NCBI GenBank assembly: GCA_021817245.1
Contig: JAKAVQ010000006.1
Location: 66,001 to 130,000 of the forward strand
Direction: 5' to 3'
From: Thermoplasmata archaeon
Lineage (GTDB): Archaea > Thermoplasmatota > Thermoplasmata > Lutacidiplasmatales > UBA184
Length of the DNA stretch: 64,000 bases
The notes below the pieces were generated by a model. It ran no database searches and was not told the origin of the DNA. It was given only the letters and a program-made list of their open reading frames with translations. Positions 5,027-58,620 of this stretch are shown here, piece after piece. Both the position numbers and the translations under genes were made by a program. Position 1 is the stretch's first letter, and every line of letters begins with the position of its first letter.

Positions 5027-5047
5027 CCGGGACGGCCGATCCGTGGC

Positions 5048-7948
5048 CTAGGAGGACGGGCCGGCGCCCGGCTTTACAAGGTAGAACGCGGGACGCCCCG
5101 GCCGCGCTCGCTCCCGGCGCCCCAGCGGGTCGCGGGAGGCCGCCTCTGCCTCGCGGAGTACGGAGACCGCGCGGAACCCGAACCGGGCGGCCAGGTACCC
5201 CTCCGCCGCCCGCAGGGTCCCGACCTCGTCGACCGCGGGTCCTTCCAACGGCGGCTCGGAGCGCAGGAGCGGGCCGATCCGTTGAACGTAGCGGGCCACC
5301 TCGGACCGGTGCGCGGCGACCTCGGGATCGGTCGTTCCCCGCTCGAGGATCGCTCGGATCGAGGGCGACTCGCCGCGCTCGACGGCCTCCCGCATCCACC
5401 GTTCGACATTCGACTTCCACGGCTCGGCGACATAGAAGAGCACCTCTTCGGGCACCCGCTCGCCCCGATCGGTGGCGAGTCGGACGACCGACCTTAGGTC
5501 GTCCTCGACGCGCTCGAGGTAGGCTTCGCGGGCCTCCGCGACCGGAGAGAGGGGGAAGTCCTCGGGCGACGGGAGCGGCTGGACCGCGACGAGCCCACCG
5601 AACCGGCCGGCCCCAAGCTCCTCCGCCAGATGTGGGACGATCGGAGCGACGAGTCGGAGCCACGCCGACCCGACACGGTCGCTCGCGCCCCCGGGCGTCC
5701 CGCCGCGGGCGTAGTACCGCTTGAGGAGCGTGGGAAGCGCGACGCACGTAAGCTCGGAGGCGCCGCGGAGGTCGCTCGCCGCGTACGCCGAGCGCACGTC
5801 GCCGATCAACCGGTGCATGCGGGAGGCGAGCCAGGCATCCAGTTCAGGGGGGCCCTCTCCATCGCCGCGACTCTCTCGGATCATGCGCTCGACCTCGTTC
5901 AGTCGGTCGCGCGCCGCGTCGACGAGCCCGGGGTCCCACGCCGCGTCGTGGGCCGGGGACGTCGCGATGAGGTAGTAGAGGCGGAGCGGGTCCGGCCCCC
6001 ACTCGGTGAGCGCCGCCTCGATCGAAGGGATCCGCCCCCCCTTCGCGCCGACGTCCTTCTTCGAGAGCTTGTCGCCCGCGGGTCCGGTGATCCAGTTGTG
6101 CACGAAGATCCCCTTCGGTCGGAGCTCCTCGGGAAGGAGCTTCGCGTGGGTGTAGAGGAAGACCGGGAAGTGGACCCGCTTGTGCTCCTTCCCACCGAGG
6201 TTGAGGTCGAGGGGATACCAGTACAGGAATTCCTCGCGGACCTCCTGCTGGAGCCGTCGGTCGACCGTCGGCTCACCCTCCCCGGAGCCGCGAAAGACGT
6301 AGTCGAAGAACGCCTCGCTGAGCTGTTCGGTCTTCAGGCGCCCGGTGCTGACGAACCGCCGGACGACGAAGTACGCCATGTAGAACGTGGAGTCGGCGAT
6401 CGGCTCGATGGTCCAGTCCGGGTCGAACGGGAACGGAGTGCCGAGCCACCGACCGCGGCGCGTGCACGGCCGGTCGTCATACCAGTCCAGGATCCCGGAG
6501 AGCTCGGCTCCGTACTCGGGGGGGACCGTGGTGAGCCGCTCGGCGAGCCCAAGGGTCGCTCGCTTCCAGTCCGGGTCTCCGTAGTGGAGGAACCACTGGT
6601 CCGGAACGCGGCGGATCACCACTTCGTGGCCATTGCGGCAGATCACGGGGATCGAGAACTCCTGGAGCTCGAACCCCCGCCCCTCCTTCGTGAGCTCGGA
6701 TGCGACCCTCTCCCGCGCCTCCCGGACCGGGACGCCCGAAAGCGGGGGGACGTTCATCCGGCCCCGCACGAACTCGAGGCGGTAGAGTCGCTCGGTCGCC
6801 GCAGCGAGCTGCTCGCGGTCGGCAAGTCTCATTACGCCGGTCGCCCGGAGCGCGCGCTCCGCGAGCGTGCCTTCCCCCGCCGTGAGCTCCCGCTCGGAGG
6901 GAGTGAGTCCCTCGGGCCGGGGGACCTCGATGAGGATCGGCGGAGGGCCAAGCTCCGCGCGCATCGGCTCCGGTAGCTCGGCGATCGCCGCGGCGTCGGC
7001 GGGCGCATGCGCCGGTACGCTCATCACGACCCCCGTGCCGATCGTGGGATCGACGAGCGGGCTCTCGAGCACCGGTACCGAAACCTCGCGCAGCGGGACC
7101 CGAACGCGCCGACCGACGATCTCGGCGGCCGGGACCTCGTGGCCGAGTCGGCCCCCGTGCTGCTCGACCAGGTGCTCCGCCCCCTTTCGCCCGACGAGGT
7201 AGGCGCGCTCTCCGTGATGCCAAACCACGAGCGTAGCGCCGGGCGCGACCCACAGGTTGGTCACGCCGTAGACCGTCTCGGGGCGCAGGGTCGCGGTGAG
7301 CAGCGCTCGGCCGTCCTCGAGCGGGAAGGCGACCGCGGTGTAACGCAGCGTTTCCGCGGTCCCGCCCGTGGAGAGGTCGGTCTCGGAGGGATCGACGGCG
7401 ACCGGTCCGCAGACCGGGCAGACCGGTGAGTAGTGAGTCCCCTGCACGAGGGCTCCTGCTGCGCGGAGGGCGTGGAACTGCCACCGCACGAACGCGCGGT
7501 AGTCCTCGTCGATGGTGGTGACGTACGTCGATTCGTCGACCAGCGCGCCGATCGAGCGCAGCACGCGCCGGTACGATTCGCCGAGGAAGCGGGCCGCCGC
7601 CTCGGGCTCTTCGAGGGCGGGCCAGTCCGAGGAAGGGACGTGCTCGATCTCGAGCAGGTGCACGGTCGTCGGGTCCCGGTCGCGCACCTTCCGCGAAAAG
7701 GTCACCGCCGGTATGCCGGAGGCGTGGACGCCGAACGGAAAGAGGACCTCCTGGCCGAGCATCCGGTGGTATCGGTGGAGGGCATCCGCGTACACGAGGG
7801 CGAGCAGATGGCCGACGTGGAAGAACCCGCTCGTGCCCGGATAGGCGACGAGCGCGAAGTACTTCTCCCGGCCGGGCACCCGGTGCCCGCTCGCGAGGCC
7901 GGCCTTCGCCCAGGCCTCTTGCCAGTGACGGGCCCTCGCGGGATCCAT
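5048..7948 (-). CDS. leuS: Leucine--tRNA ligase (archaeal type)
   Basis: Class-I aaRS HVGH (FFHVGHLLA) and KMSKS-like (KLSKKDVGAKGGRIPSIEAA) motifs; about 966 aa from the internal Met at 7948 (the ORF extends to 8035). Confidence 0.9.
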   Translation of the reverse strand: MDPARARHWQEAWAKAGLASGHRVPGREKYFALVAYPGTSGFFHVGHLLALVYADALHRYHRMLGQEVLFPFGVHASGIPAVTFSRKVRDRDPTTVHLLEIEHVPSSDWPALEEPEAAARFLGESYRRVLRSIGALVDESTYVTTIDEDYRAFVRWQFHALRAAGALVQGTHYSPVCPVCGPVAVDPSETDLSTGGTAETLRYTAVAFPLEDGRALLTATLRPETVYGVTNLWVAPGATLVVWHHGERAYLVGRKGAEHLVEQHGGRLGHEVPAAEIVGRRVRVPLREVSVPVLESPLVDPTIGTGVVMSVPAHAPADAAAIAELPEPMRAELGPPPILIEVPRPEGLTPSERELTAGEGTLAERALRATGVMRLADREQLAAATERLYRLEFVRGRMNVPPLSGVPVREARERVASELTKEGRGFELQEFSIPVICRNGHEVVIRRVPDQWFLHYGDPDWKRATLGLAERLTTVPPEYGAELSGILDWYDDRPCTRRGRWLGTPFPFDPDWTIEPIADSTFYMAYFVVRRFVSTGRLKTEQLSEAFFDYVFRGSGEGEPTVDRRLQQEVREEFLYWYPLDLNLGGKEHKRVHFPVFLYTHAKLLPEELRPKGIFVHNWITGPAGDKLSKKDVGAKGGRIPSIEAALTEWGPDPLRLYYLIATSPAHDAAWDPGLVDAARDRLNEVERMIRESRGDGEGPPELDAWLASRMHRLIGDVRSAYAASDLRGASELTCVALPTLLKRYYARGGTPGGASDRVGSAWLRLVAPIVPHLAEELGAGRFGGLVAVQPLPSPEDFPLSPVAEAREAYLERVEDDLRSVVRLATDRGERVPEEVLFYVAEPWKSNVERWMREAVERGESPSIRAILERGTTDPEVAAHRSEVARYVQRIGPLLRSEPPLEGPAVDEVGTLRAAEGYLAARFGFRAVSVLREAEAASRDPLGRRERARPGRPAFYLVKPGAGPSS

Positions 7949-47300: not shown

Positions 47301-48044
47301 TCAGGCGAGAAGTCCGCTGGCCTTAAGCCCTTCGACAAAGCCGGCGGCGTACGTCGCCCGGCTCACGTACCGAGCCGCCCGGCGAGCCCGAGGGCTGGCG
47401 GAGGCGAAGCTCACCCCGAAGCCGGCGGCGCGCAGCATGCGGACGTCGTTGTCGCCGTCGCCCAGGACCACGCACTGGGAGGTCGAGAGCCCGAGGTGGC
47501 CGAGGGCGCGCACCAGCGCCGGAAGCTTGCCGGCGCCCCGTTCCATGAGGTGGATCGCGAATCCGGTCGACTCCACTTCGACCGGGCAGCCCTTGAGGGC
47601 GCGACGGATCCGGGCGGCGGCGACCGTCGGCTCGAGCGCGACCTCGCTCTCGCGCCATCGGTCGGTGAAGAGACGCCGCACCGGGATCCCCCCGGCGCGG
47701 AGACTTCGATAGGCCCGGCGGGCCGGGGCCGGATCGGCGAGCCGCTCGACGACGTCCCGGCCCAAGCCGTCCCGCCGGTAGAGGATCCCGCCATTCTCGG
47801 CCACGATCGGTCCCGAGAGACCGAGCGACCGGTAGAGAGCGAGGGCGATCGGAAGGACGTTGCCGGTCGCAAGGAGGACGGGCACGCCGCGGTCCTCGAG
47901 CGCTCGGACGCAGCGGAGCGCCTCGAGGTCGAGGCGTCGGCTCGAGTCGGTAAGCGTCCCGTCCACGTCCGTGACCACCGCGCGGAACTCGGTAGGGCCG
48001 TGGGGCCGGCTCCGGAACCTCCGGTCGACCCGGGACCGGCTCAT
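47301..48044 (-). CDS. HAD-IIB phosphatase (phosphoglycolate phosphatase-like)
   Basis: VVTDVDGTLT motif I; GDGDNDVRML motif III; start ATG overlaps the gatE stop (ATGA). Confidence 0.7.
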   Translation of the reverse strand: MSRSRVDRRFRSRPHGPTEFRAVVTDVDGTLTDSSRRLDLEALRCVRALEDRGVPVLLATGNVLPIALALYRSLGLSGPIVAENGGILYRRDGLGRDVVERLADPAPARRAYRSLRAGGIPVRRLFTDRWRESEVALEPTVAAARIRRALKGCPVEVESTGFAIHLMERGAGKLPALVRALGHLGLSTSQCVVLGDGDNDVRMLRAAGFGVSFASASPRARRAARYVSRATYAAGFVEGLKASGLLA

Positions 48045-49927
48045 GATCCGGTGCCGGTGGGTGGCGCCTCGCCGTCGGCGATCCGCGCGATCGCTGCGCG
48101 GAGCGCATCGGCGACCTCCTTTCCGTCGCGGCGGCCCCGAACCTCTCGCATCACGTCGCCCATCAGCGCCGAGAACGCCTCCTTGCCCCGGCGGCGGACG
48201 AGCTCCTCGTTCGCCCGAACGACCCGGTCGACCAGCGCCGCCAGCTCCTCGGCCCGGAATCCCGAGAGCCCCGAGCGCTCGACCGCGGTATCGAGGTCGG
48301 GCGCCCCGGCGGCGAGCGCCGACAGGACGGCCGGGATCCCCTCTTTCGCAAATCGGCCCGACTCGACCGCGGTGAGCAAGGCGTCGAGCGTTACCGGTTC
48401 GAGCGCGAAGGGTCCGCTTCCCTCCGGGCGAGTGACCGACGGGAGTTCGTGGAGGAGGAGGCGGGCCACGAGCGCGGGAGCGTGGCCGTGCGCGGTGAGC
48501 TCCTCGAACGGCTCCTCGTCCTCGCTGTAGACGATCTGCCGGACCACCTCGGGGTCCAGCCCGTGCTCCCGGGCCAGGCGGGCGCGGCGCGCCTCCGGGC
48601 GCTCGGGCAGCGAGCGCTCGACGGACCGGATCCGATCCCTGCCGATCGGGATCGGCGGGATGTCGGTCTCGGGGTACATCCGGTCGCGGCCGGGAAGCGG
48701 TCGGGAGTAGCGGCTCCGGCCCTCCGCGAGGGGGTCCCGGGTCTCCCCGGGAACTCCCGACCGCGCCGCATTGGCCCGTTGGGCGACCCGCCGGAGGACG
48801 AGCTCGGCCCGATCCCTCGACCGCTCCGACACGAGCACGAACGCATCGCCGGCTCCGAGCATCAGGCGGGCCCGGATCTCCCGGACCCGCTCCTCCGTGA
48901 TTCCGTGCGCGGGGAGCTCGTCCGAGTGAAGGAGCCCCCGGACCCCCAGCGCCCGGGCCTGGTCGGCGAGCTCCCGTCCAAGCCGCTCCTCGGTCCCGGC
49001 GGGCGAGCGGAGGAGCCCGTCGAATCCGGGAAGGGCGAGGGCGAGCACCACGGTCGAACCTTTCCCGGCGCCGGCGAGCGGCCCGCTCGTGATGTCGTCG
49101 ACAAGCCCGGTCAGGTCGACCGGTCGGCCGTCGGGCGGCGGGGCGGACCGGCGGGCGAGTTCGTCCCGGATCTCGAGGAGGAGACGCTGCCGGGCGACCT
49201 CGCGGTCGACGTACTCCTGGATCTTGTTGAGCTCCTGGACCCCCTTGATCTCGATACGGTGACCACCGTCCGCGGAGACGTTGAGGTCCTCCCGGATCGT
49301 CCCGATGCCTCGGCGCACCCGCCGGGTCGCTCGCAGGAGCGCCCCGATCTCCTGGGCGACCGCGCGGGCCTCGCGTCCCGTGGAGATCTCGGGCCCGGTC
49401 GCGATCTCGACGAGCGGGATCCCGAGTCGATCGAGACGGTAGGTAACCTCTTCGCCACTCTCGCGGACCTTGCGTGCCGCATCCTCCTCGAGGCACACGG
49501 AAAGGATGGAGATCCGGCGCCCGTCCACGTCGAGATGGCCATCGGTCGCGATGAGCGCGGTCCGTTGGAATCCCGAGGTGTTCGAACCGTCGACTACGAT
49601 CTTGCGCATGACCGTGATCTCGTCGACCGGTCGAGCGTTCAAGAGGAGCGCGAGCGCAAGCGCCGTATCGAGCGCCGCGGGGTTCAAAGGATGGGGAGGC
49701 TCCTCGTCGAGCTCTACGAGACAGCTCGACGGAACGACCTCGTACCGGTAACGCAGCTCCCGGGAAGCCTGGAAGGCCGCGGCCGCATCGATCGCGCGAT
49801 CTTCTCCACCCGCCGGACGAAGCCGCCGCACGACGGTACCGAGGACCTCCTCGGAGAGCTCGGAGGGGCAGGCGCAGAACAGCTTCGAGAGCGAGAGCTG
49901 CTGGTGGACCTCGAGGCCGGCCTTCAT
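48041..49927 (-). CDS. gatE: Glutamyl-tRNA(Gln) amidotransferase subunit E
   Basis: 628 aa; MKAGLEVHQQL... GatB/E catalytic core and C-terminal YqeY-like tail; archaeal-specific. Confidence 0.85.
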   Translation of the reverse strand: MKAGLEVHQQLSLSKLFCACPSELSEEVLGTVVRRLRPAGGEDRAIDAAAAFQASRELRYRYEVVPSSCLVELDEEPPHPLNPAALDTALALALLLNARPVDEITVMRKIVVDGSNTSGFQRTALIATDGHLDVDGRRISILSVCLEEDAARKVRESGEEVTYRLDRLGIPLVEIATGPEISTGREARAVAQEIGALLRATRRVRRGIGTIREDLNVSADGGHRIEIKGVQELNKIQEYVDREVARQRLLLEIRDELARRSAPPPDGRPVDLTGLVDDITSGPLAGAGKGSTVVLALALPGFDGLLRSPAGTEERLGRELADQARALGVRGLLHSDELPAHGITEERVREIRARLMLGAGDAFVLVSERSRDRAELVLRRVAQRANAARSGVPGETRDPLAEGRSRYSRPLPGRDRMYPETDIPPIPIGRDRIRSVERSLPERPEARRARLAREHGLDPEVVRQIVYSEDEEPFEELTAHGHAPALVARLLLHELPSVTRPEGSGPFALEPVTLDALLTAVESGRFAKEGIPAVLSALAAGAPDLDTAVERSGLSGFRAEELAALVDRVVRANEELVRRRGKEAFSALMGDVMREVRGRRDGKEVADALRAAIARIADGEAPPTGTGS

Positions 49928-51383: not shown

Positions 51384-51492
51384 GCCCGTGTGGGGTAGCT
51401 ACGGGTCCGGGGCAATCCCCCCGGCTCGCTGCAATGGATTATCCTAGAGGCCTGCGGAGCCTCAGACCTGGGTTCGAATCCCAGCACGGGCG
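51384..51492 (+). tRNA. tRNA-Arg (anticodon GCG) with a ~35-nt intron in the D-loop; probable integration target
   Basis: Acceptor GCCCGTG/CACGGGC with discriminator G; anticodon arm GAGGC-CTGCGGA-GCCTC; T arm CTGGG-TTCGAAT-CCCAG; inserted block TACGGGTCCGGGGCAATCCCCCCGGCTCGCTGCAA sits at the same D-loop point as in tRNA-Pro. Confidence 0.7.
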
Positions 51493-51544: not shown

Positions 51545-52840
51545 ATGGCGAAGCGGATTGACCACCGACCCCTGCTCATGGACAAGCAAATCCGCACATG
51601 GTACGACGAGAACTCGCTTCGGTCGAGGCTGACCGCAGAGGTTAACCTTCGGCAACTCGGCCTCTTCTGTCACGTCACAGAAACCGATCCTCGACGACTC
51701 GTCCAGCTCGGTCAGAGAGATCCCGAGCGGCTGCACGGAACCCTCGTTCGATACGCGAAGACGCTCCAAGGATCGGGCCGGCTTCCGAGTTACATCGCAA
51801 AGACGTTCGTGGGAATCAAGGGGTGGCTTCGTTTCAACCGCGTCGAGTTCGACCAGTTTCCCCGACTCCGAGTGGTCCAGGGCGAATCCATCCGAGAGGA
51901 GCGCGTCCCCACCCAGGAGGAGCTTCGAAGGATCCTCTCGACCTACTCGGCCAGGGGGCGCGTCGTTTCCCTGCTCATGGCGCACACCGGAGTCAGACCC
52001 GGCGTACTTGCAGCGATTGACGGTAGCGATGGCCTCCGGCTCTCCGATTTGAAAGACCTCGAGTTGGGTGCGGACCCCAAGTTCGGGCGTGTGCCCTTTC
52101 ACTTGGTCGTCCCGGCTCGGCTCTCCAAGACCTCGGTCGAGTACCACACCTTCGGGACGCCCGAACTCGCTGACGCGATCCTAGCGTACCTCGCCGAGCG
52201 GCGACAACGAGGGGAGGAACTCAGACCTTCGTCCCCGGTTGTTACCGTCGACGCGATGGGCGCCCGGACAAAGCTACGCGAGAAGTCGAAGACCGGTTTC
52301 ATCACGACGCCGATGATGATGCGCGCTCTCCGGGACGGCCTCAAGGCGATCCTCCCGAGCGCGCGGACCTACGTGTTCCGCGCCTACTGTTCGACCCAGA
52401 TGGTCTCGGCACGGATCGACCGAGACGTGCGCGAGGCGATCTTGGGTCACTCCCTCGGAGTGAGCGGCCGGTACAACCTCTCGAAGAAGCTACACCCTTC
52501 GGTGGTCGAAGAGCTCCGCCGGGAGTACGCAAGGGCCGTTCCTTACCTCGAGTCGGGCCGCCCCAAGGAGGATCGCGCGACTGTCCTCGAGGGAGTCCTC
52601 GCGGCGCTGCTCAAGGAGAAGGGGGTCAAGGACGACAAGATCAGCGAGGTCCTCGAGGGCAAGGTTGCGGGGGACGAACTCGAACGGATCCTGGGCTCAC
52701 GCAAGGCGGAGCCCATCCAAAGGGTGGTCCCGACGACGGGGGTTTCGGAGCTGCTCTTGCTAGGCTGGGAGTTCGTTTCCCCGCTCGGGACCGACCAGGC
52801 AGTTCTCCGGGCGCCCGCGAACGGCACGGCCCCCGTGTGA
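51545..52840 (+). CDS. int: Tyrosine-type site-specific integrase/recombinase
   Basis: 431 aa; catalytic-domain pattern LMAHTGVRPG (Arg), ILGHSLGVSGRY (His-x-x-Arg ... Tyr) with an N-terminal SAM-like domain. Confidence 0.8.
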   Translation: MAKRIDHRPLLMDKQIRTWYDENSLRSRLTAEVNLRQLGLFCHVTETDPRRLVQLGQRDPERLHGTLVRYAKTLQGSGRLPSYIAKTFVGIKGWLRFNRVEFDQFPRLRVVQGESIREERVPTQEELRRILSTYSARGRVVSLLMAHTGVRPGVLAAIDGSDGLRLSDLKDLELGADPKFGRVPFHLVVPARLSKTSVEYHTFGTPELADAILAYLAERRQRGEELRPSSPVVTVDAMGARTKLREKSKTGFITTPMMMRALRDGLKAILPSARTYVFRAYCSTQMVSARIDRDVREAILGHSLGVSGRYNLSKKLHPSVVEELRREYARAVPYLESGRPKEDRATVLEGVLAALLKEKGVKDDKISEVLEGKVAGDELERILGSRKAEPIQRVVPTTGVSELLLLGWEFVSPLGTDQAVLRAPANGTAPV

Positions 52841-52935: not shown

Positions 52936-54225
52936 TTACTCGACTTTCCGTTCCCACCCCGCCCTCGAATAGATGCGCTGACGTTCGACCACTACCGTCC
53001 CGGTCGCTTGTCCAAGCCATCGGAGGTAGGAACGGACGCTCTTTGCCCTCCGTATGGGGGTCGAGCCTCGCAAGTGCGACGTGGCCTCGATGATGCGAGC
53101 TACTTCGGAGTCACTCACTCCCTCGGCCCCCCTCTCCCGCACGAGGCTGAACACGCGGTTGAGTAGAGGATTCTTGAGCAATCGTTCGGCGACAAGTAGT
53201 TCCCTTCTCTCTTGGGGAAGCCCCACGTACTGCCTTCCCTTGTCGGTGAGTGCGAACACTCCCTCTTCGAGCCGTACGAGCCCGAGTGCTTCCGCGGCTT
53301 CGCGGTAGTAACTCCCTTGACGGGTGGTGATCTTGTAGTGGTCCGCCCACCCCTTCGCCGTCGTGATTCCCGATTGGACGAGAAGGGGTAGCTCCACGAC
53401 CTTCCGCAAGTCATCGGCTTGGGGGACGATATCGACGCTCGGGTCGGGCGTGACGTCACTCAACCAATCTTGGGGAGCCTGCTCTTCGACGACCCGGTAT
53501 CGGGCCCTGCTTCGGCACCTGATACTCTCGTAGTCGTACGAGTCCGTCCACTCGTATTCCCACACCGAATAGGTCGAGACATCGGGTTCGGCAACGAAGA
53601 AGAACGAGCGGACGCTCTTGCCGGGCGACCACTCCCGGAACGTTCGGTAGGGAAAGTAGAGTTGCCGAACGAGAAAGTCGCGGCGGGTGTCGGCCTTTCC
53701 TTCGAAGAGCAGAACGTCACGCGGACCTTCGAACCCGGCGTCGAGTTCCATACCGGCTCCCCGAACGTCGAGATTCGGCGAGCCGTCGATTCGAAACGTG
53801 AACGTGCCGCTCCCCATCTTTCCCGAGATGGTTTGGTAGAGGGACGGGACGCCCGAGAAGTGGCTCAGGAGGCCCGTGTGGTAGGCGTGGAGGAGAAACC
53901 GGTTCTCCCCTTTACCATACGCAAGTGTCGTGAGCGAGATGGGCAGTCGGGCGCGGTAGGCTTGCGGCTCGCCGGGGTCTTCGAGTTCGTGGTAGCCCCT
54001 CCCACGAACTACGGCGTACCGAGATCGCGAGAGGGGGACCACGAACACGCCGTTATCGCGGAACAAGGTAGGGAGCTTGTCTTCGGAATCCATCGAAGCG
54101 AGCAGGCGGGGCTCGACACCGAGATGGATGTGGATGTCTTGGTTGGTGACGAAATTGACGGGGGCCGTGATGTCGAGATGGAGCTTGTCAATGAGTTCGG
54201 ACCATCGCTCGTGAAGTACGACCAT
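52936..54225 (-). CDS. Putative type II restriction endonuclease with additional C-terminal winged-helix domain
   Basis: 429 aa; directly downstream of, and co-oriented with, a Dam methylase; PD-(D/E)xK-like GMELD...LFEGK; C-terminal about 140 aa looks wHTH. Confidence 0.45.
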   Translation of the reverse strand: MVVLHERWSELIDKLHLDITAPVNFVTNQDIHIHLGVEPRLLASMDSEDKLPTLFRDNGVFVVPLSRSRYAVVRGRGYHELEDPGEPQAYRARLPISLTTLAYGKGENRFLLHAYHTGLLSHFSGVPSLYQTISGKMGSGTFTFRIDGSPNLDVRGAGMELDAGFEGPRDVLLFEGKADTRRDFLVRQLYFPYRTFREWSPGKSVRSFFFVAEPDVSTYSVWEYEWTDSYDYESIRCRSRARYRVVEEQAPQDWLSDVTPDPSVDIVPQADDLRKVVELPLLVQSGITTAKGWADHYKITTRQGSYYREAAEALGLVRLEEGVFALTDKGRQYVGLPQERRELLVAERLLKNPLLNRVFSLVRERGAEGVSDSEVARIIEATSHLRGSTPIRRAKSVRSYLRWLGQATGTVVVERQRIYSRAGWERKVE

Positions 54226-54229
54226 CGAC

Positions 54230-55060
54230 CTACCCGTAATTCATCACAAGCAACTCGTCAATCGCGCCGCGGGCCGTCCCCTTGGAGTTGATGGCTCGCT
54301 TTGCCTTCAACGCCTCAATCCGGAACCCGTCGTAGAGCGTCTTGACGAGCGGCGTCGCGGAGTTGGAGAGCATCACGAGGACCCCCCGCTTGTCGAGCCG
54401 GCGATAGGTTTCGGCAAGCTTCCTTTGCTCTCGGTTTCCGAAGTCCTCTTTGGTGTAGCTCGTGAACTTGGACGTTTCGCTCAACGGGTGGTAGGGGGGG
54501 TCCAAGTAAACGAAGTCCCCGATCTTGACCCTCGCACACACCTTCTGGTAGTCGGCGAGGACAATGTTCTTACCGCGGAGAAGGGCACTCGTCGCGGGCA
54601 AGTTCTCCCGGTCGTAGAGAGTTGGGTTCTTGTAGCCGCCCCACGGGACGTTGAAGTTGCCGTCGGAGTTTACCCGATACAAGCCGTTGAAGCACGTCTT
54701 GTTCAGGAAGATGGTTCGTGCGGCTCGCTCGACCGACGAGAGCGTAGATGGGTCCGTGGCTCGAACCTTGTAGAAGTAGGCTTCCTCGGTTCGTTGCGGG
54801 AGGTGTTCGTCGAGCGCCCGCATTAGGCCGCCGGGGTCATCGCGAACGATTGTGAACGTGTTGACGAGTTCGGGGTTCGAGTCGGACAACATGGCCTTCT
54901 CGGGCTGGAGATGGAAGAAGACGGCCCCTCCCCCGAGGAACGGCTCGAAGTACGTTCGAAAGTCCTTCGGGAAGAACGGCTCCATCTGGGGAATAAGTTG
55001 GGCCTTTCCCCCCGCCCACTTGAGAAAGGGGCGCGCCGGGAGGAGGGTCTGGGCCAGCAC
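54230..55060 (-). CDS. dam: DNA adenine methyltransferase (Dam/D12 class N6-adenine MTase)
   Basis: 276 aa; motif I FLKWAGGK...FEPFLGGGAVFF and catalytic DPPY (VYLDPPYHPLS). Confidence 0.85.
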   Translation of the reverse strand: MLAQTLLPARPFLKWAGGKAQLIPQMEPFFPKDFRTYFEPFLGGGAVFFHLQPEKAMLSDSNPELVNTFTIVRDDPGGLMRALDEHLPQRTEEAYFYKVRATDPSTLSSVERAARTIFLNKTCFNGLYRVNSDGNFNVPWGGYKNPTLYDRENLPATSALLRGKNIVLADYQKVCARVKIGDFVYLDPPYHPLSETSKFTSYTKEDFGNREQRKLAETYRRLDKRGVLVMLSNSATPLVKTLYDGFRIEALKAKRAINSKGTARGAIDELLVMNYG

Positions 55061-55410
55061 GCGGGGCCACCAGCAACGGACTACTTACGCGGAACGCTCA
55101 CCGCCACGTCGAACCCGTAGCCGGCGAGGAATCGGGCGGATCTACCCCCGAAAGAGCGCCGTGGAGCCTCTTTGACGGCCCTGTGAACGAAGGATCTGGG
55201 GGTATCGACGGGCGGCCCGTGGGAACAGGAGAGAGAAACGCTCGGGCCCCGTTTTCGGTTCCGACGCGAACTGGGACATGGGCGAGGGCACGATAAGCCT
55301 GCGAGGGTCGGGGGTGGCGGGGCGCAGTAAGGGGGGATGTGCGTAGGCATCACCCACTCTTGTGGATGCTCCCCGCAGGAAGCCATGTGTGTACGCGCGT
55401 TCGAACCGCG

Positions 55411-55522
55411 GCACCGGCCGGTGCCCGGGAAGCGTAGGCCGGTGTCGTCCGGTGCCGTCGGGGACCGCGCCCCGTGCCGCTTGGTGCCGCAACGGTGCCG
55501 AGCCGGCGTCGGTCCGGTGCCG
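55411..55522. repeat. Iteron-like cluster: at least 7 copies (4 perfect) of GGTGCCG / CGGTGCCG within about 110 bp
   Basis: Read directly: GGTGCCC 55420, GGTGTCG 55441, GGTGCCG 55451, GTGCCG 55474, GGTGCCG 55483, 55494, 55516; inverted copy GCACCGG at 55411. Confidence 0.5.
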
Positions 55523-55634
55523 TCGACAAACCCGGGCGATGTGACGCTCTCCGACACCAAGCCGGTTGCAGATCGCGAAGAGACGGGGGGCGGCACTGGG
55601 AGATGCGACGTTACCCGTTACTGTGGAGGCGGCC

Positions 55635-56134
55635 TGATGTGGCGCGCTCCAACGCGCGCGCGTGAGGACGGAACGGACCGGACCACGCGCTTCCTGCTTT
55701 CCAGCAGGCGGCGTGATGTGGCGCGCTCTCTCACGGGCGCGCGAGGGGGGGAGGATCCGGGCCGGACGAGGACGCGCCGGACGAGTGGGACGAGCCGGAC
55801 GAGTGCTCGCCCCGGACGACTCCCGTTGGCCGGCAGCTGGTCGCCTACCTGGACCGGGAGCAGGCGCTTTCGGCGGCAAAGGATCGCGCCGGGGCGGAGC
55901 GACGCAAGCCTCCCGTCTGCGAGGACTGCGGGGCACGATTCAGCCGGAGGGATGCGATGGAGCGCCACCAATGGAGCGTTCACGGGAATGGAGCGTGACG
56001 CCCGTGGTGGTGGTGGGCGGGGCGCCCCGCCATATATATATCCCGTGCGCGCGCGAGGACGGACCGGACCACGCGCTTCCTGCTTCCCAGGAGGCGACGT
56101 GAAGTGGCGCGCGCTCTCACGCGCGCGTGAGGGG
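55635..56134. repeat. Two ~75-bp imperfect direct repeats (55674-55750 and 56061-56134, about 90% identical) plus a partial third copy (55635-55667)
   Basis: GGACCGGACCACGCGCTTCCTGCTT(T/C)CCAG(C/G)AGGCG(G/A)CGTGA(T/A)GTGGCGCGC..CTCTCACG(G/C)GCGCG(C/T)GAGGGG; contains CCTGCT..AGCAGG and GCGCGC..GCGCGC inverted repeats. Confidence 0.6.
56031..56041. promoter_or_regulatory. (TA)5 alternating tract, strong TATA-box candidate just upstream of repeat copy 2
   Basis: CATATATATAT, the only pure AT tract in about 2 kb; flanked by CGCGCGCG. Confidence 0.35.
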
Positions 56135-56424
56135 AGCGAGGTCTTCCCCCGGACGAGGACGAGCCGAGGGACAACCTCGTGACACGTTACCAGTAGGAGC
56201 GGGCCGGATCGAGACACTCCGGGCACGGGTCGCCAAGTCGCATCGAGCCGCTGGGCGGTCCCGGGTCCCCGGTCCTGACGCGCGAGAACTACACGCGCGA
56301 GAGGGGGCGCGGGCTCGTCCGGGCGGGCGGGACGAGGGCGGGTCGCTCGCCCGCACACACAAACGGACACGGCCCGTTCCGGAACGTTGTCGGTGGAGGA
56401 AGAGAGCGGACGAGGACGAGTCGG

Positions 56425-56913
56425 TCATGCGCTCGCCCCTCCCGACGGTGCGCACCGCTTGAGATGGCGGCTCAGATTGTCCCGCCGAACCGAGAGGCCG
56501 CACCAGGGGCAGGGAGCGCGGTAGGCACCAGACCAGGCCGAGGGACGGTCAGGGGAGGTGGGCGTGGAGTCCTTCGCTCTCTTGGCCTCTCCTCGAGGCG
56601 GAAGGGGAGAGGGTGGCAGTGGTGGTGGGCGAATAGGCGCGGTACGTACCGTATCCGTTGCGGGGACGAGCGAGGGTCGGACGAGTCGGGGCCACCCCCC
56701 TCCCCGCTCACACATATGGGACACGGCCCGTTCCGTAACGTTTCCGGACCGGAGGGAATAGGCGGTCGCTCCGCTGCGCTCACAACCGGTGCCCGGTATA
56801 GGGCAGGGTCGTCCTCTCCGCGCGCACCGCGTGCACCTTGTGCGCAGACGTCTCCATGCCGTCCGCTCCCACGGAGAGTCCACTTCGTGCGTGCCTCTGG
56901 CGTGTGCGGTCAT
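56425..56913 (-). CDS. Candidate small zinc-finger protein (zinc ribbon plus C-terminal C2HC finger)
   Basis: C-terminal CPWCGLSVRRDNLSRHLKRC (C-x2-C-x12-H-x3-C) and upstream CTRC...CPIPGTGC; start assigned to an internal Met; speculative. Confidence 0.3.
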   Translation of the reverse strand: MTAHARGTHEVDSPWERTAWRRLRTRCTRCARRGRPCPIPGTGCERSGATAYSLRSGNVTERAVSHMCERGGGWPRLVRPSLVPATDTVRTAPIRPPPLPPSPLPPRGEAKRAKDSTPTSPDRPSAWSGAYRAPCPWCGLSVRRDNLSRHLKRCAPSGGASA

Positions 56914-57172
56914 GGGAACAGCCGCAGGCCGAGTGCAACCGGCGGTCGCACGCAGTCCCCGGCGGCGACGACAAGCGATAGACCCACGCGAGATGATGGT
57001 GTGAGCAAAGTCCCCGCCCGAGAACCGTCGCCCGAGTCTCGGTGTGACCCAGGGGGTACGACCGAAGGGCTGGGTCCGGGCCCGGGCGGGATCTCGCGCG
57101 ATCGGTGCCAAGGACCCGGGCCGAAGGAAGGATTTATCATTCAGCGACATATCCCATCCCTCCCGAGGGGAT

Positions 57173-57436
57173 ATGTCCGAGAAGAGTCGCCATCTGGTAG
57201 AATCCCGACTTGCGCGCATTGAAGGTCACATACACGCCGTCCACCGCATGGCCCATGAAGGAAGGAGTTACCCCGAGATCGTCCACCAGATCTCCGCTAT
57301 TCGATCTTCCTTGGATGCCGCGGTTCAAGCAATCGTTGACGATCTGGTTCGGAGCTGTATCCACGACGCGTCCGGCAACGAATCCATTGCCTCGACCGTG
57401 GAGGAACTTCAGGCCGTCGTCGCCAGCGCTCTCTAG
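57173..57436 (+). CDS. CsoR/RcnR/FrmR-family metal-sensing transcriptional repressor
   Basis: 87 aa; LARIEGHIHAVHRMAHEGRSYPEIVHQISAIRSSLDAAVQAIVDDLVRSCIHD matches the DUF156 helical-bundle pattern; His/Cys ligand positions present. Confidence 0.75.
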   Translation: MSEKSRHLVESRLARIEGHIHAVHRMAHEGRSYPEIVHQISAIRSSLDAAVQAIVDDLVRSCIHDASGNESIASTVEELQAVVASAL

Positions 57437-57468
57437 CGAGTACCCTCCCCCCTCCTTCCCGGGTACAA

Positions 57469-58374
57469 ATGCCGATCCTTCAGCACGGAGAGGGAGAAGC
57501 CGAAGCCCGCATACTGGTGGGGCTCCGCCTCGCTGTCCAGCTCAGCGTGGTGATTCTTGTGATGGAGGCCCTCGGTGCCTTCTTCTCTCGCAGTCTTTCG
57601 CTGACCGTAGACGCCGTTCACGACCTTCCCGACATCTTCGCGTTCCTGCTGTCCTGGGGGGCCTTGAGGTCGACGTCGAAGGGGCCTTCCGAAGGGTTCA
57701 CTTTCGGCTCGCACCGCTTGGAAACCTTCGCGGGCGTTCTCAACGCGGTGGTCGTTCTGATCGTGGGCGCCGCCTTCGGGGCGGAAGCGTTCTCTGCACT
57801 CTGGTCAAGAAGCACCTTCGCCGGCCCCGTGAACGCCGTCTGGCTTCTCGCCGCGGCGGTGCCCACCCTGGTGCTTAGGCTAATCGGTGTCGGCGTTCTG
57901 AACCGGCTCCCGGGAAAGGTCCGGGACCTGAATCTCGCGAGCGTTCTCCTCCACATGGCGAGTGATATCGCTATCACGGGGGCGCTTCTCGTCGTAAGCG
58001 CCGTCCTCTTCATCCAGCCTGCTTGGGGGGTGGCCGATCCCATTGCCGCCCTCGTCATCGCCGGAGTCCTTGTCTACGAGTCGATTCCACTGCTGCGAGA
58101 AGGGTGGAGAATCCTTACCGAACGTGCTCCGAGAGGTATCTCAGTGGAGGCGATTGAGCGAGAGGCCCTCAGCGTCCCGGGTGTTTCGGGACTGCACGAT
58201 CTCCACGTCTGGTCAGTTTGCAGTTCCCTCGTCTGCCTCACCGCGCATGTAGGAGTGAAGGAAATGTCGCTTCGAGACTGCATGTCGGTCGTCGCAGAGC
58301 TGAGGAGCAAAATGGAGCGCGAGTTCGGCATTGTCCACGCCACGTTTGAGATAGAGGGACAGTCGAGCGCGTGA
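57469..58374 (+). CDS. Cation diffusion facilitator (CDF) family metal exporter
   Basis: 301 aa; six TM helices with HD/HD-like metal site motifs (AVHDLPD; HMASDIAI) and C-terminal cytoplasmic domain. Confidence 0.85.
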   Translation: MPILQHGEGEAEARILVGLRLAVQLSVVILVMEALGAFFSRSLSLTVDAVHDLPDIFAFLLSWGALRSTSKGPSEGFTFGSHRLETFAGVLNAVVVLIVGAAFGAEAFSALWSRSTFAGPVNAVWLLAAAVPTLVLRLIGVGVLNRLPGKVRDLNLASVLLHMASDIAITGALLVVSAVLFIQPAWGVADPIAALVIAGVLVYESIPLLREGWRILTERAPRGISVEAIEREALSVPGVSGLHDLHVWSVCSSLVCLTAHVGVKEMSLRDCMSVVAELRSKMEREFGIVHATFEIEGQSSA

Positions 58375-58620
58375 GGAGGTCGTTCCTCCGGGGGCCATTT
58401 GGGGGTTGGCTCTTGGTTCGAAACGGATCGAGCCCGATGGGACCGAACCCTCACATCGTTCACCGACTTCGAGATCCTGCGGATGCTGAACCGTACGCTC
58501 CGGAGCGTCGGCGGCATGCCCTGTAGGGCAGTCGAGTGCGGATGAACTGACGGCCGGCGCGGTCCCTAGCCGAGTTCGATGGCGACAGATCTTGTCCGTC
58601 CGGTTTCGTATCAACTGGGG

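Follow-up and report, generated by a model that had tools for sequence, protein, structure and literature searches.

Is the repeat-rich stretch between the dam and CsoR genes of this archaeal contig a replication origin, a regulatory region or the residue of something that was once larger? The window analysed here is the whole stretch of 64,000 nucleotides, and the region in question (55061-57172, about 2.1 kb) sits within a tRNA-integrated mobile-element island of a soil Thermoplasmata archaeon. A preliminary description had likened it to the replication origin and regulatory hub of a plasmid or virus, pointing to GGTGCCG iterons, long direct repeats with hairpins, a (TA)5 tract and palindromic sites. 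Nearly all of these features are present, at or a few bases from the places given for them, with the number of iterons and the statement on coding content in need of correction. The comparison with a replication origin is unsupported, as the searches turned up no initiator among the island genes scanned, no origin recognition box (ORB), no adjacent AT-rich element and no similarity to plasmids or phages. The regulatory part of the proposal fares better, since related loci carry the (TA)5 tract and the GC palindromes as parts of one cassette directly upstream of gene starts. The region is probably a recombined, gene-depleted and decaying remnant of the early or regulatory part of a mobile element integrated at tRNA-Arg, and evidence for a working replication origin is absent.

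The proposed history starts from related loci (numbered L below) in which the module is intact: a gene for a P-loop ATPase-like protein is followed by a GC palindrome, here called the B-box and often placed directly behind a TATA box, and then by the gene of a PrsW-like membrane protein. Some relatives add a small zinc-finger gene, ZnF1, as a partial duplicate of the C-terminal domain of the ATPase with its own TATA and B-box promoter. The pieces that survive in the window are two copies of the ATPase gene end with its stop codon and B-box, seen as the long direct repeats (X); one complete block of G-tract, TATA box and B-box, which holds the (TA)5 tract; ZnF1 without a start; and a second, C-terminally conserved zinc-finger gene, ZnF2, whose promoter and 5' end would have been duplicated to give the CGTTCCGGAACG repeat. 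Recombination between repeated B-boxes would have made the mosaic. The TATA and B-box cassettes would be archaeal promoters with the palindrome between the TATA box and the transcription start, probably as an operator for a DNA-binding protein of the element, either a zinc-finger or a helix-turn-helix (HTH) protein, and most cassettes in this copy would be orphaned.

The repeat arrangement is no assembly artefact, because two other contigs carry the same sequence independently: L001, an independent contig of 50 kb, is 100% identical to the window over 54001-58500, and L002, from another sample, covers 52986-56093 with one single-nucleotide polymorphism (SNP). Three short metagenomic contigs that carry dam (L002, L003 and L004) stop inside the X/B-box repeats, at window positions 56093, 55681 and 55664, respectively. 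These ends are consistent with extra repeat copies confusing the assembly, for example those of L021, which comes from the same sample as L002.

Gene ends, B-boxes and promoter-like cassettes

The features of the region are as follows, in the order of their coordinates.

55409-55522, no strand: GGTGCCG array of five exact and three one-mismatch sites, from a word scan and a 10-nt period in Tandem Repeats Finder (TRF)
55493-55576, no strand: conserved non-coding core made of the last two GGTGCCG units and 55 nt of unique sequence, 79% identical to L008 5294-5377
55627-55668, plus strand: half copy of X (repeat family D1), with the B-box hairpin GCGCGC-TCCAAC-GCGCGCGCG and no preceding gene end; B-box match with two mismatches at 55653
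55653-55779, plus strand: X copy 1, homologous to L022 1033-1091 (80% over 59 nt) and to L014 after its integrase
55717-55998, plus strand: ZnF1, a 93-codon stop-to-stop frame ending in the C2H2 finger CEDCGARFSRRDAMERHQWSVH, from its translation and homologs; conserved part 55825-55998
55999-56063, plus strand: conserved promoter-like block, about 94% identical to L005, L006 and L008
56044-56166, plus strand: X copy 2, 83% identical to L022 over 59 nt, with no gene behind it
56292-56314, minus strand: weak inverted B-box-like sequence (inverted repeat I1, 78% complementary to 56107-56129; motif match with three mismatches), weak evidence
56365-56393, minus strand: copy a of a 29-nt repeat (D8), with the palindrome CGTTCCGGAACG, downstream of the ZnF2 stop
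56425-56715, minus strand: ZnF2, a 96-codon open reading frame (ORF) with ATG at 56715-56713 and stop at 56427-56425, ending in CPWCGLSVRRDNLSRHLKRC, from tblastn; weak coding potential
56719-56747, minus strand: copy b of the 29-nt repeat, with the AT-rich AAACGTTA (56743-56736), directly upstream of the ZnF2 ATG

The two direct repeats of some 75 bp at about 90% identity and their half copy are real: 55673-55748 and 56059-56134 are 91% identical over 76 nt, the half copy extends over 55627-55684, and with gaps allowed the homology of the two X copies runs from 55653-55779 to 56044-56166 (82% over 130 nt). The core of X is found only in this region within the window. The inverted repeats described in these copies are present as well, with folding energies that are ordinary when compared to shuffled sequences (z -0.65 to -1.3). 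X copy 1 holds a gene-end remnant, ..HALPAFQQAA with TGA at 55714-55716, corresponding to the last codons of the ATPase-like gene; its first hairpin is CCTGCT/AGCAGG (55693-55708), the arms of its B-box hairpin lie at 55721-55726 and 55737-55742, and these are accompanied by a run of seven G residues (G7, 55745-55751) and the motif CCGGACGAGGAC. X copy 2 is built in the same order, with the remnant ..HALPASQEAT and TGA at 56100-56102, a first hairpin CTTCCTG/CAGGAGG (56076-56094), a B-box that contains the perfect palindrome CTCACGCGCGCGTGAG (56116-56131) and the motif CCGGACGAGGACGAG. The counterpart at L022 1033-1091 consists of the last codons (..ATLPASQGAT) and the TGA of an ATPase-like gene, followed by a GC hairpin ahead of a PrsW-like gene. 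Judged by this homology, the comparison shows X to be the end of an ATPase-like gene (about ten last codons) with its TGA stop, together with an intergenic GC palindrome, a module conserved in related elements.

The B-box, CTCTCACGCGCGCGCGAGG, forms the core of X. Four copies are located within 55647-56133, the rest of the window has none with one mismatch or fewer, and further B-boxes are carried by L014 (four copies), L006 (five), L020, L021 and L022. In L014 an X unit stands directly behind the integrase. From one element to another the X/B-box units keep about 80-90% identity, against only about 39% for the ATPase-like proteins. The homology of the window to L005, L006 and L008 stops at 56056-56063, directly after a B-box; as homology breaks at the B-boxes, recombination between repeated B-boxes would be the simplest source of the mosaic.

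As described previously, the (TA)5 tract CATATATATAT (56031-56041) is unique, with ATATATAT occurring at 56032 and 56034 only in the 64 kb. It forms part of the 65-nt block behind the ZnF1 stop, which comprises a G-tract (GTGGTGGTGGTGGGCGGGGCG, 56004-56022), the (TA)5 tract and CCCGTGCGCGCGCGAG, with the B-box variant B-box' (CGTGCGCGCGCGAGG) at 56044-56058. The block is more conserved (about 94%) than the adjacent coding part of ZnF1 (86%), and these identities show strong constraint on the block. In L005 and L006 the sequence TATATAT lies about 30 nt before the GTG of ZnF1 and the B-box follows 3-4 nt behind the TATA box; the same combination of TATA box and B-box is also found ahead of the gene for the PrsW-like membrane protein in L021, L005, L006, L008 and L014. 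In the host part of the window, AT-rich boxes are typically located 21-38 nt upstream of the starts of long ORFs. The region itself contains only five AT-rich 8-mer words (at 55080, 56030-56043, 56710, 56736 and 57128), and of the four besides the (TA)5 tract, those that do not fall at the ZnF2 ATG precede the starts of dam, ZnF2 and CsoR by 24-37 nt. Given the upstream position in relatives and the spacing seen in the host, the best reading of the (TA)5 tract is that of an archaeal TATA box and not of an unwinding element. No gene is left downstream of 56031-56041, and no start of an ORF of at least 100 codons was found downstream of the TATA box near X copy 2. A scan of the region for bacterial promoters and terminators gave nothing useful, the bacterial models not being applicable to archaea, and an Rfam scan of the region returned no family at the gathering threshold or at E<=1.

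Zinc-finger gene remnants and the GGTGCCG array

The earlier statement that almost no confident coding sequence is present is largely correct, the exceptions being two small zinc-finger gene remnants, ZnF1 and ZnF2. The only positive stretch in the codon-usage model is 55780-55870, in the plus-strand frame with position modulo 3 equal to 1, and the same model misses the real CsoR gene. Five long ORFs of 171-281 aa (55337-56182 and 56464-57222 on the plus strand; 55142-55936, 55618-56370 and 56425-57219 on the minus strand) were rejected as genes because they have no Pfam match and negative codon-usage scores and because gene calls conflict between identical contigs. The repeats could have been explained by a peptide motif repeated in a genuine long ORF; they are not of this kind. 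A protein search with the concatenated six-frame translation of the region gave nothing among the best 8000 candidates, which is a weak negative, and tblastn found no homologs of the ATPase-like, HTH-like or PrsW-like proteins in the window.

The ZnF1 frame carries the classical motif C-x2-4-C-x12-H-x3-5-H and matches Pfam zf-C2H2_4 and zf-C2H2 at E ~1e-3, which falls short of the gathering score; hundreds of multi-C2H2 proteins are matched by the family profile through positions 65-92. Its homologs P0001-P0003 are 93-96 aa long, are 79-82% identical to it over the last 57 aa, and start with GTG or ATG, the conserved part following about 38 codons further on; in the window this part begins at about 55820-55825. 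The window copy has no ATG, GTG or TTG between the upstream stop (55714-55716) and codon 82, that is, before its last 12 codons, and without a start codon it is not an intact translatable gene. Differences from relatives fall on the three codon positions as 7/3/20, a third-position bias that points to past purifying selection on ZnF1. The zinc ligands vary in relatives, with H>R in L005 and C>Y in L008, and the SNP of L002, at window position 55981 and the only one over 2.1 kb, turns the last ligand from His to Asn. The G7 run is identical in two assemblies. A structure model of ZnF1 reached a pLDDT of 61, a low confidence that does not permit a search for similar folds. The N-terminal half of ZnF1-type proteins (TVLPYLAYGLRGFDIDVDV..RQLV) matches the C-terminal domain of P0037 (337 aa; L021 1489-2502), a protein with Walker-A- and Walker-B-like motifs, read by eye, and no Pfam or PDB sequence match. 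Other partners in this duplication are L006 1929-2588 and the ZnF1 homologs; in L008 both parts are contiguous but frameshifted. ZnF1 was once a real gene, is damaged in this copy and is probably a pseudogene that has lost its 5' part.

Searches for further ZnF1 relatives added little. A scan of viral contigs gave one match, in L016, which lies inside a bacterial phage tail gene and was discarded as spurious; a DNA-pattern scan of viral contigs found nothing; and a metagenome scan with the ZnF1 alignment returned only loci already known and one weak match.

Conservation of ZnF2 is limited to its C-terminal 55 aa or so: tblastn aligns it with a 206-aa protein of L006 (57% over 54 aa) and with P0004 (70% over 43 aa), the latter adjoining a serine recombinase. 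Tandem genes of the ZnF2 type are carried by L006. The palindrome and the near-repeat reported around this gene were recovered as the 29-nt repeat, 56365-56393 against 56719-56747 at 90% identity. In copy b, AAACGTTA sits 21-28 nt upstream of the ZnF2 ATG, a spacing that makes this copy the likely ZnF2 promoter. The similarity of copy a runs on into the first ZnF2 codons (GTTTGTGTGTGCGGGCGAG against CATATGTGTGAGCGGGGAG, read directly from the sequence), and on this alignment copy a is a degenerate duplicate of the predicted ZnF2 promoter and 5' end.

In place of the "at least seven" GGTGCCG iterons reported, the array at 55409-55522 holds eight sites when one mismatch is allowed and only five exact copies, four of them on the plus strand and one on the minus strand; the one-mismatch copies start at 55420, 55441 and 55473. 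Seven of the eight sites are direct, spaced by 21, 10, 22, 10, 11 and 22 nt, which amounts to a phase of about 10.6 nt and is not a multiple of 3. The inverted copy builds a perfect 16-bp palindrome, GGCACCGGCCGGTGCC (55410-55425). The array is the densest GGTGCCG cluster in the 64 kb, with eight per 120 nt against a mean of 1.07. Between the window and L008, differences in the array flank are distributed over the codon positions as 6/5/7, and without a coding signature the conservation is of a non-coding kind. The version in L008 is shorter (3-4 units), no comparable array was found by TRF scans in L005, L006 and L014, and L021 and L022 have no BLAST homology to it, most of these relatives being fragments. 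The presence of 3-4 units in L008 and of none at five other related loci suggests expansion by slippage rather than a conserved origin. The array would best be explained as a non-coding element, conserved in itself, that has expanded in tandem in this lineage and may well bind a protein; no tie to replication was seen, and binding by ZnF1 would be pure conjecture.

Two other identities of the array were considered and rejected. The end of an IS630-type insertion sequence (IS), suggested by the homolog in L008, does not fit, as the other IS copy extends no further than its stop codon and the IS does not include the homologous sequence. Arm-type sites of the integrase do not fit either, the array being more than 3.9 kb from the tRNA core and on the far side of the integrase gene. 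The word of the array also occurs outside it, as CCGGTGCCCGG and then GTATAGGG (56787-56805) and as GATCGGTGCC (57099-57112). A weaker cluster of GGTGCCG-like words is found in host DNA at 47941-48120 (six with at most one mismatch per 120 nt), within a stretch of long ORFs, and is probably codon-driven.

Remnant, working hub, cis-acting site or origin

Several observations sit uneasily with a decaying remnant built from promoter cassettes. The relatives are few and most of them are short or rearranged contigs. The cassettes are predicted to be archaeal promoters from their position and conservation. Half of the B-box copies, those of the X type, have no clear TATA box, and in L022 a B-box stands between two possibly co-transcribed genes, so that the palindrome may act independently of promoters. 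Its conservation also appears stronger than would be expected for an ordinary operator, given the 39% identity of the ATPase-like proteins. The pseudogene status of ZnF1 and ZnF2 is unproven: initiation at a non-canonical codon or a frameshift at the G7 run may be conceived, and a viral single C2H2 finger whose structure has been solved works without one canonical ligand (PMC3541406). Finally, an array with this helical phasing could also be a genuine set of protein-binding sites, for instance at an origin or a partition site.

One alternative is a region that is undecayed and working, in which the cassettes drive small proteins or non-coding or antisense RNAs. The products would be ZnF1 (through non-canonical initiation or a G7 frameshift), ZnF2 and micro-ORFs such as MWRALSRAREG, with control over the restriction-modification (R-M) and metal-resistance genes of the island. 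The purifying-selection-like substitutions in the C-terminal 57 codons of ZnF1 would agree with this, as would an ATG at 55716 that lies one frame off directly upstream of the G7 run, the recurrence of an ATG or GTG followed by ..RAL(S/T)RAR.. among the copies, the common orientation of all four B-box cassettes toward the antisense strand of ZnF2 and the identity of the sequence across samples from different assemblies. The RAL(S/T)RAR likeness, however, follows trivially from the DNA palindrome, and one population variant of ZnF1 loses a zinc ligand. Gene callers disagree between contigs, and the six-frame search came back empty, although that test is weak. The reading is disfavoured because the ZnF1 start is missing, codon-usage scores are negative nearly throughout and the genes that stand under these cassettes in relatives have been lost here; it is regarded as unlikely. 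A different possibility is that the X/B-box is no promoter part at all and would be a cis-acting DNA site, either an origin of the rolling-circle type or the core site of a tyrosine recombinase, with its copies marking past events. In the rolling-circle version the variable upstream inverted repeat would be the site of binding and the conserved GC hairpin with its loop CTCTCAC the site of nicking. The layout is indeed bipartite: the first hairpin varies between elements (CTTCCGG..CCGGAAG against CTTCCTG..CAGGAGG) and the second keeps almost the same stem and loop even in divergent elements. The unit always stands just downstream of a conserved gene (ATPase-like, ZnF1 or, in L014, the integrase), homology breakpoints and contig ends coincide with it, and arms of 6-8 bp around a spacer of 6-10 nt would resemble recombinase core sites. 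A precedent exists in the rolling-circle origin of the pleolipovirus SNJ2, in which an inverted repeat and a conserved hairpin lie downstream of rep, DUF7845 being the recently described archaeal Rep-Arvir family (PMC13107129). Yet no match to DUF7845 (PF25227), HUH, Rep_trans or another rolling-circle replication endonuclease was found by Pfam among the proteins of the window, L005, L006, L008, L014, L021 and L022. A covariation test on the four X copies shows nothing beyond invariance, and the ordinary folding energies do not help; X has no obvious similarity to tRNA-Arg, the would-be core of the attachment (att) site, as judged by eye and not by alignment; and the many copies placed exactly 3-4 nt behind a TATA box are a better fit to a promoter element. 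A cis-acting site of this kind is considered quite unlikely.

A more far-reaching version of the same thought is that the X/B-box unit, a variable inverted repeat with the almost invariant GCGCGC-CTCTCAC-GCGCGC hairpin behind it, would be the origin or recombination site of an undescribed, SNJ2-like family of Thermoplasmata elements with an unrecognised initiator. The array would then provide accessory sites for the initiator or for zinc-finger proteins, and the copies would record repeated recombination. This is a speculation to which a low probability is given. Lower still, and the least probable of the alternatives, is an origin of the theta type as in plasmids or viruses, with an initiator bound to the GGTGCCG iterons, the (TA)5 tract as unwinding element and the repeats as operators. 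Eight short repeats with a terminal palindrome are real and unique in the window (eight sites in 114 nt of non-coding DNA, their binding putative), they are partly conserved in one related element and they lie inside an integrated mobile element. Their helical phasing of about 10.6 bp, on the other hand, follows automatically from a tandem unit of 10-11 bp, and the array is shorter in L008 and missing from the five other loci. No recognised initiator is encoded by the island ORFs scanned (51.5-64 kb), in which no Orc1/Cdc6, MCM, primase, Rep or DUF7845 domain was detected, the island continuing beyond the window. The (TA)5 tract lies 510 bp from the array, in a block conserved in relatives that have no array, and no AT-rich unwinding element stands beside the iterons. 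The core of ORB and mini-ORB boxes (TTCCAGTGGAAAC) has no match in the region at up to three mismatches and its counts across the window are at chance level; with neither ORB boxes nor orc1/cdc6, the region does not resemble a chromosomal-type archaeal origin. The similarity search against plasmids and viruses that had been proposed as a check, a blastn of the 2.1 kb against plasmid and phage records, gave no match. The remnant of duplicated gene ends and promoters is therefore preferred as the probable explanation.

AFV1p06, a single C2H2 finger of an archaeal virus, binds poly(CG) double-stranded DNA better than poly(AT) (PMC3541406). Given this preference and the (CG)n character of the B-boxes, binding of a zinc-finger protein to the B-box would be a reasonable idea, pure conjecture as it is.

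The island, its neighbours and known systems

The island begins at a tRNA gene, and promoter-like elements of its other genes flank the repeat region.

51424-51492, plus strand: tRNA-Arg (GCG), from ARAGORN and Rfam, the likely integration site of the element
51578-52840, plus strand: tyrosine integrase of the element (PHROG phrog_1 integrase, E 7e-10; weak XerA match)
55080-55087, minus strand: AT-rich box TAAGTAGT, about 24 nt upstream of the dam GTG start (55060)
57147-57176, no strand: perfect 9-bp inverted repeat at the CsoR start, ACATATCCC-N12-GGGATATGT, overlapping the CsoR start codon (57173)

GatD and GatE genes at 48-51 kb, seen in the identical contig L001, mark the window as archaeal. 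The host DNA has about 70% GC, which falls to 59-65% downstream of the tRNA-Arg and the integrase. Relatives of the integrase are 76-84% identical and occur in Thermoplasmata metagenome-assembled genomes (MAGs), two of them adjoining a tRNA-Arg; the closest all come from MAGs labelled Thermoplasmata archaeon. The tRNA-Arg, the integrase next to it, the drop in GC and the differing cargo of relatives at tRNA-Arg place the region inside a tRNA-integrated island. A second copy of the tRNA-Arg 3' end, which would be the att site at the far border, was not found in the window at up to three mismatches, and the island may run past 64000.

After the integrase come a restriction endonuclease (REase)-like protein and Dam on the minus strand, the repeat region, CsoR, a CDF transporter, a methyltransferase and ORFs without a Pfam match; searches of the island ORFs with Pfam, NCBIfam and PHROG identified the integrase, REase-like DUFs, Dam, CsoR, CDF, the methyltransferase and a SoxE-like protein. 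The minus-strand segment 52936-55060, of low GC (59-61%), encodes the Dam-type methylase and a 429-aa DUF6996/DUF6997/DUF7226 protein, a candidate restriction enzyme. This R-M module looks like a later insertion because X/B-box units directly follow the integrase in L014. The box at 55080-55087 is probably the TATA box of the dam/R-M promoter, as its position suggests. CsoR is identified by Pfam (E 5e-18), and a further AT-rich box, TTTATCATT (57133-57141), lies ahead of its inverted repeat. An operator role for such a repeat is in keeping with what is generally known of CsoR operators, and 57133-57176 is likely the promoter and autoregulatory operator before the CsoR-CDF transporter pair, a property of the neighbouring gene and not of the repeat region.

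Among the relatives, L012, L013 and L015 have the same integrase family beside tRNA-Arg (GCG or CCT) with downstream cargo that is unrelated in each, which points to a hot spot of repeated integration. In L008, an IS630-like transposase is inserted in the ATPase-like gene (1-1029) and a second transposase fragment lies beside the homolog of the GGTGCCG region (5032-5286), insertions which indicate that relatives are decaying too. Beside the ATPase/PrsW-like module of L022 (2199-5241), a 506-aa Schlafen/AlbA_2 protein overlaps a 510-aa protein without a Pfam match; the two are possibly a pair of defence genes.

The mobile elements of soil Thermoplasmata have hardly been characterised. The locus and its relatives define a small element family, marked by an integrase at tRNA-Arg, an ATPase-like gene of the P-loop kind, a membrane protein resembling PrsW and zinc-finger proteins with a single C2H2 finger. 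Its strikingly conserved non-coding B-box unit of about 60 nt could serve as a marker for finding such elements and is the one feature worth following up. If the B-box is functional, as an operator for eukaryote-like zinc-finger regulators or as an origin or recombination site, it would give entry to the regulation or replication of this group. The locus is also cautionary: iteron-like repeats, hairpins and an AT tract mimic an origin and are here better explained by duplicated promoter and gene-end fragments and tandem expansion in a decaying island.

Four known systems can be compared with the region. In iteron plasmid origins, direct repeats that bind Rep, typically of about 17-22 bp, stand beside an AT-rich DNA unwinding element and the rep gene. 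The array shares with them its 7-8 short direct repeats in helical phase in non-coding mobile-element DNA; it differs in that no rep gene or adjacent AT-rich element was found, in its units of 7-10 bp and in that, among the related loci scanned, most of them fragments, only L008 has a version of it, a shorter one. The betapleolipovirus SNJ2 is likewise an integrated archaeal element with its integrase at a tRNA, and a variable inverted repeat followed by a conserved hairpin behind a conserved gene is common to both. By contrast, no Rep was detected here, the host class is different, several copies exist instead of one and the gene ahead is ATPase-like; the likeness would be one of sequence layout. 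ZnF1 resembles AFV1p06 in being small, in having a single classical C-x2-C-x12-H-x4-H finger flanked by extensions and in being encoded by a mobile element of archaea; the window copy differs in having no start codon, and the two are likened by layout and not by a sequence relationship.

Repressors of archaeal viruses and plasmids use operators between the TATA box and the transcription start, and the cassettes can be compared with such promoter-operators. They differ in that a TATA box is missing from half of the palindrome copies, that those of the window have no intact gene behind them and that the transcription start, the B recognition element (BRE) and the binding protein are putative. 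They agree in the AT-rich TATA box, which stands out from very GC-rich DNA and precedes a start codon by about 30 nt, in the palindrome directly downstream of it, and in the reuse of one cassette ahead of several genes of one element.

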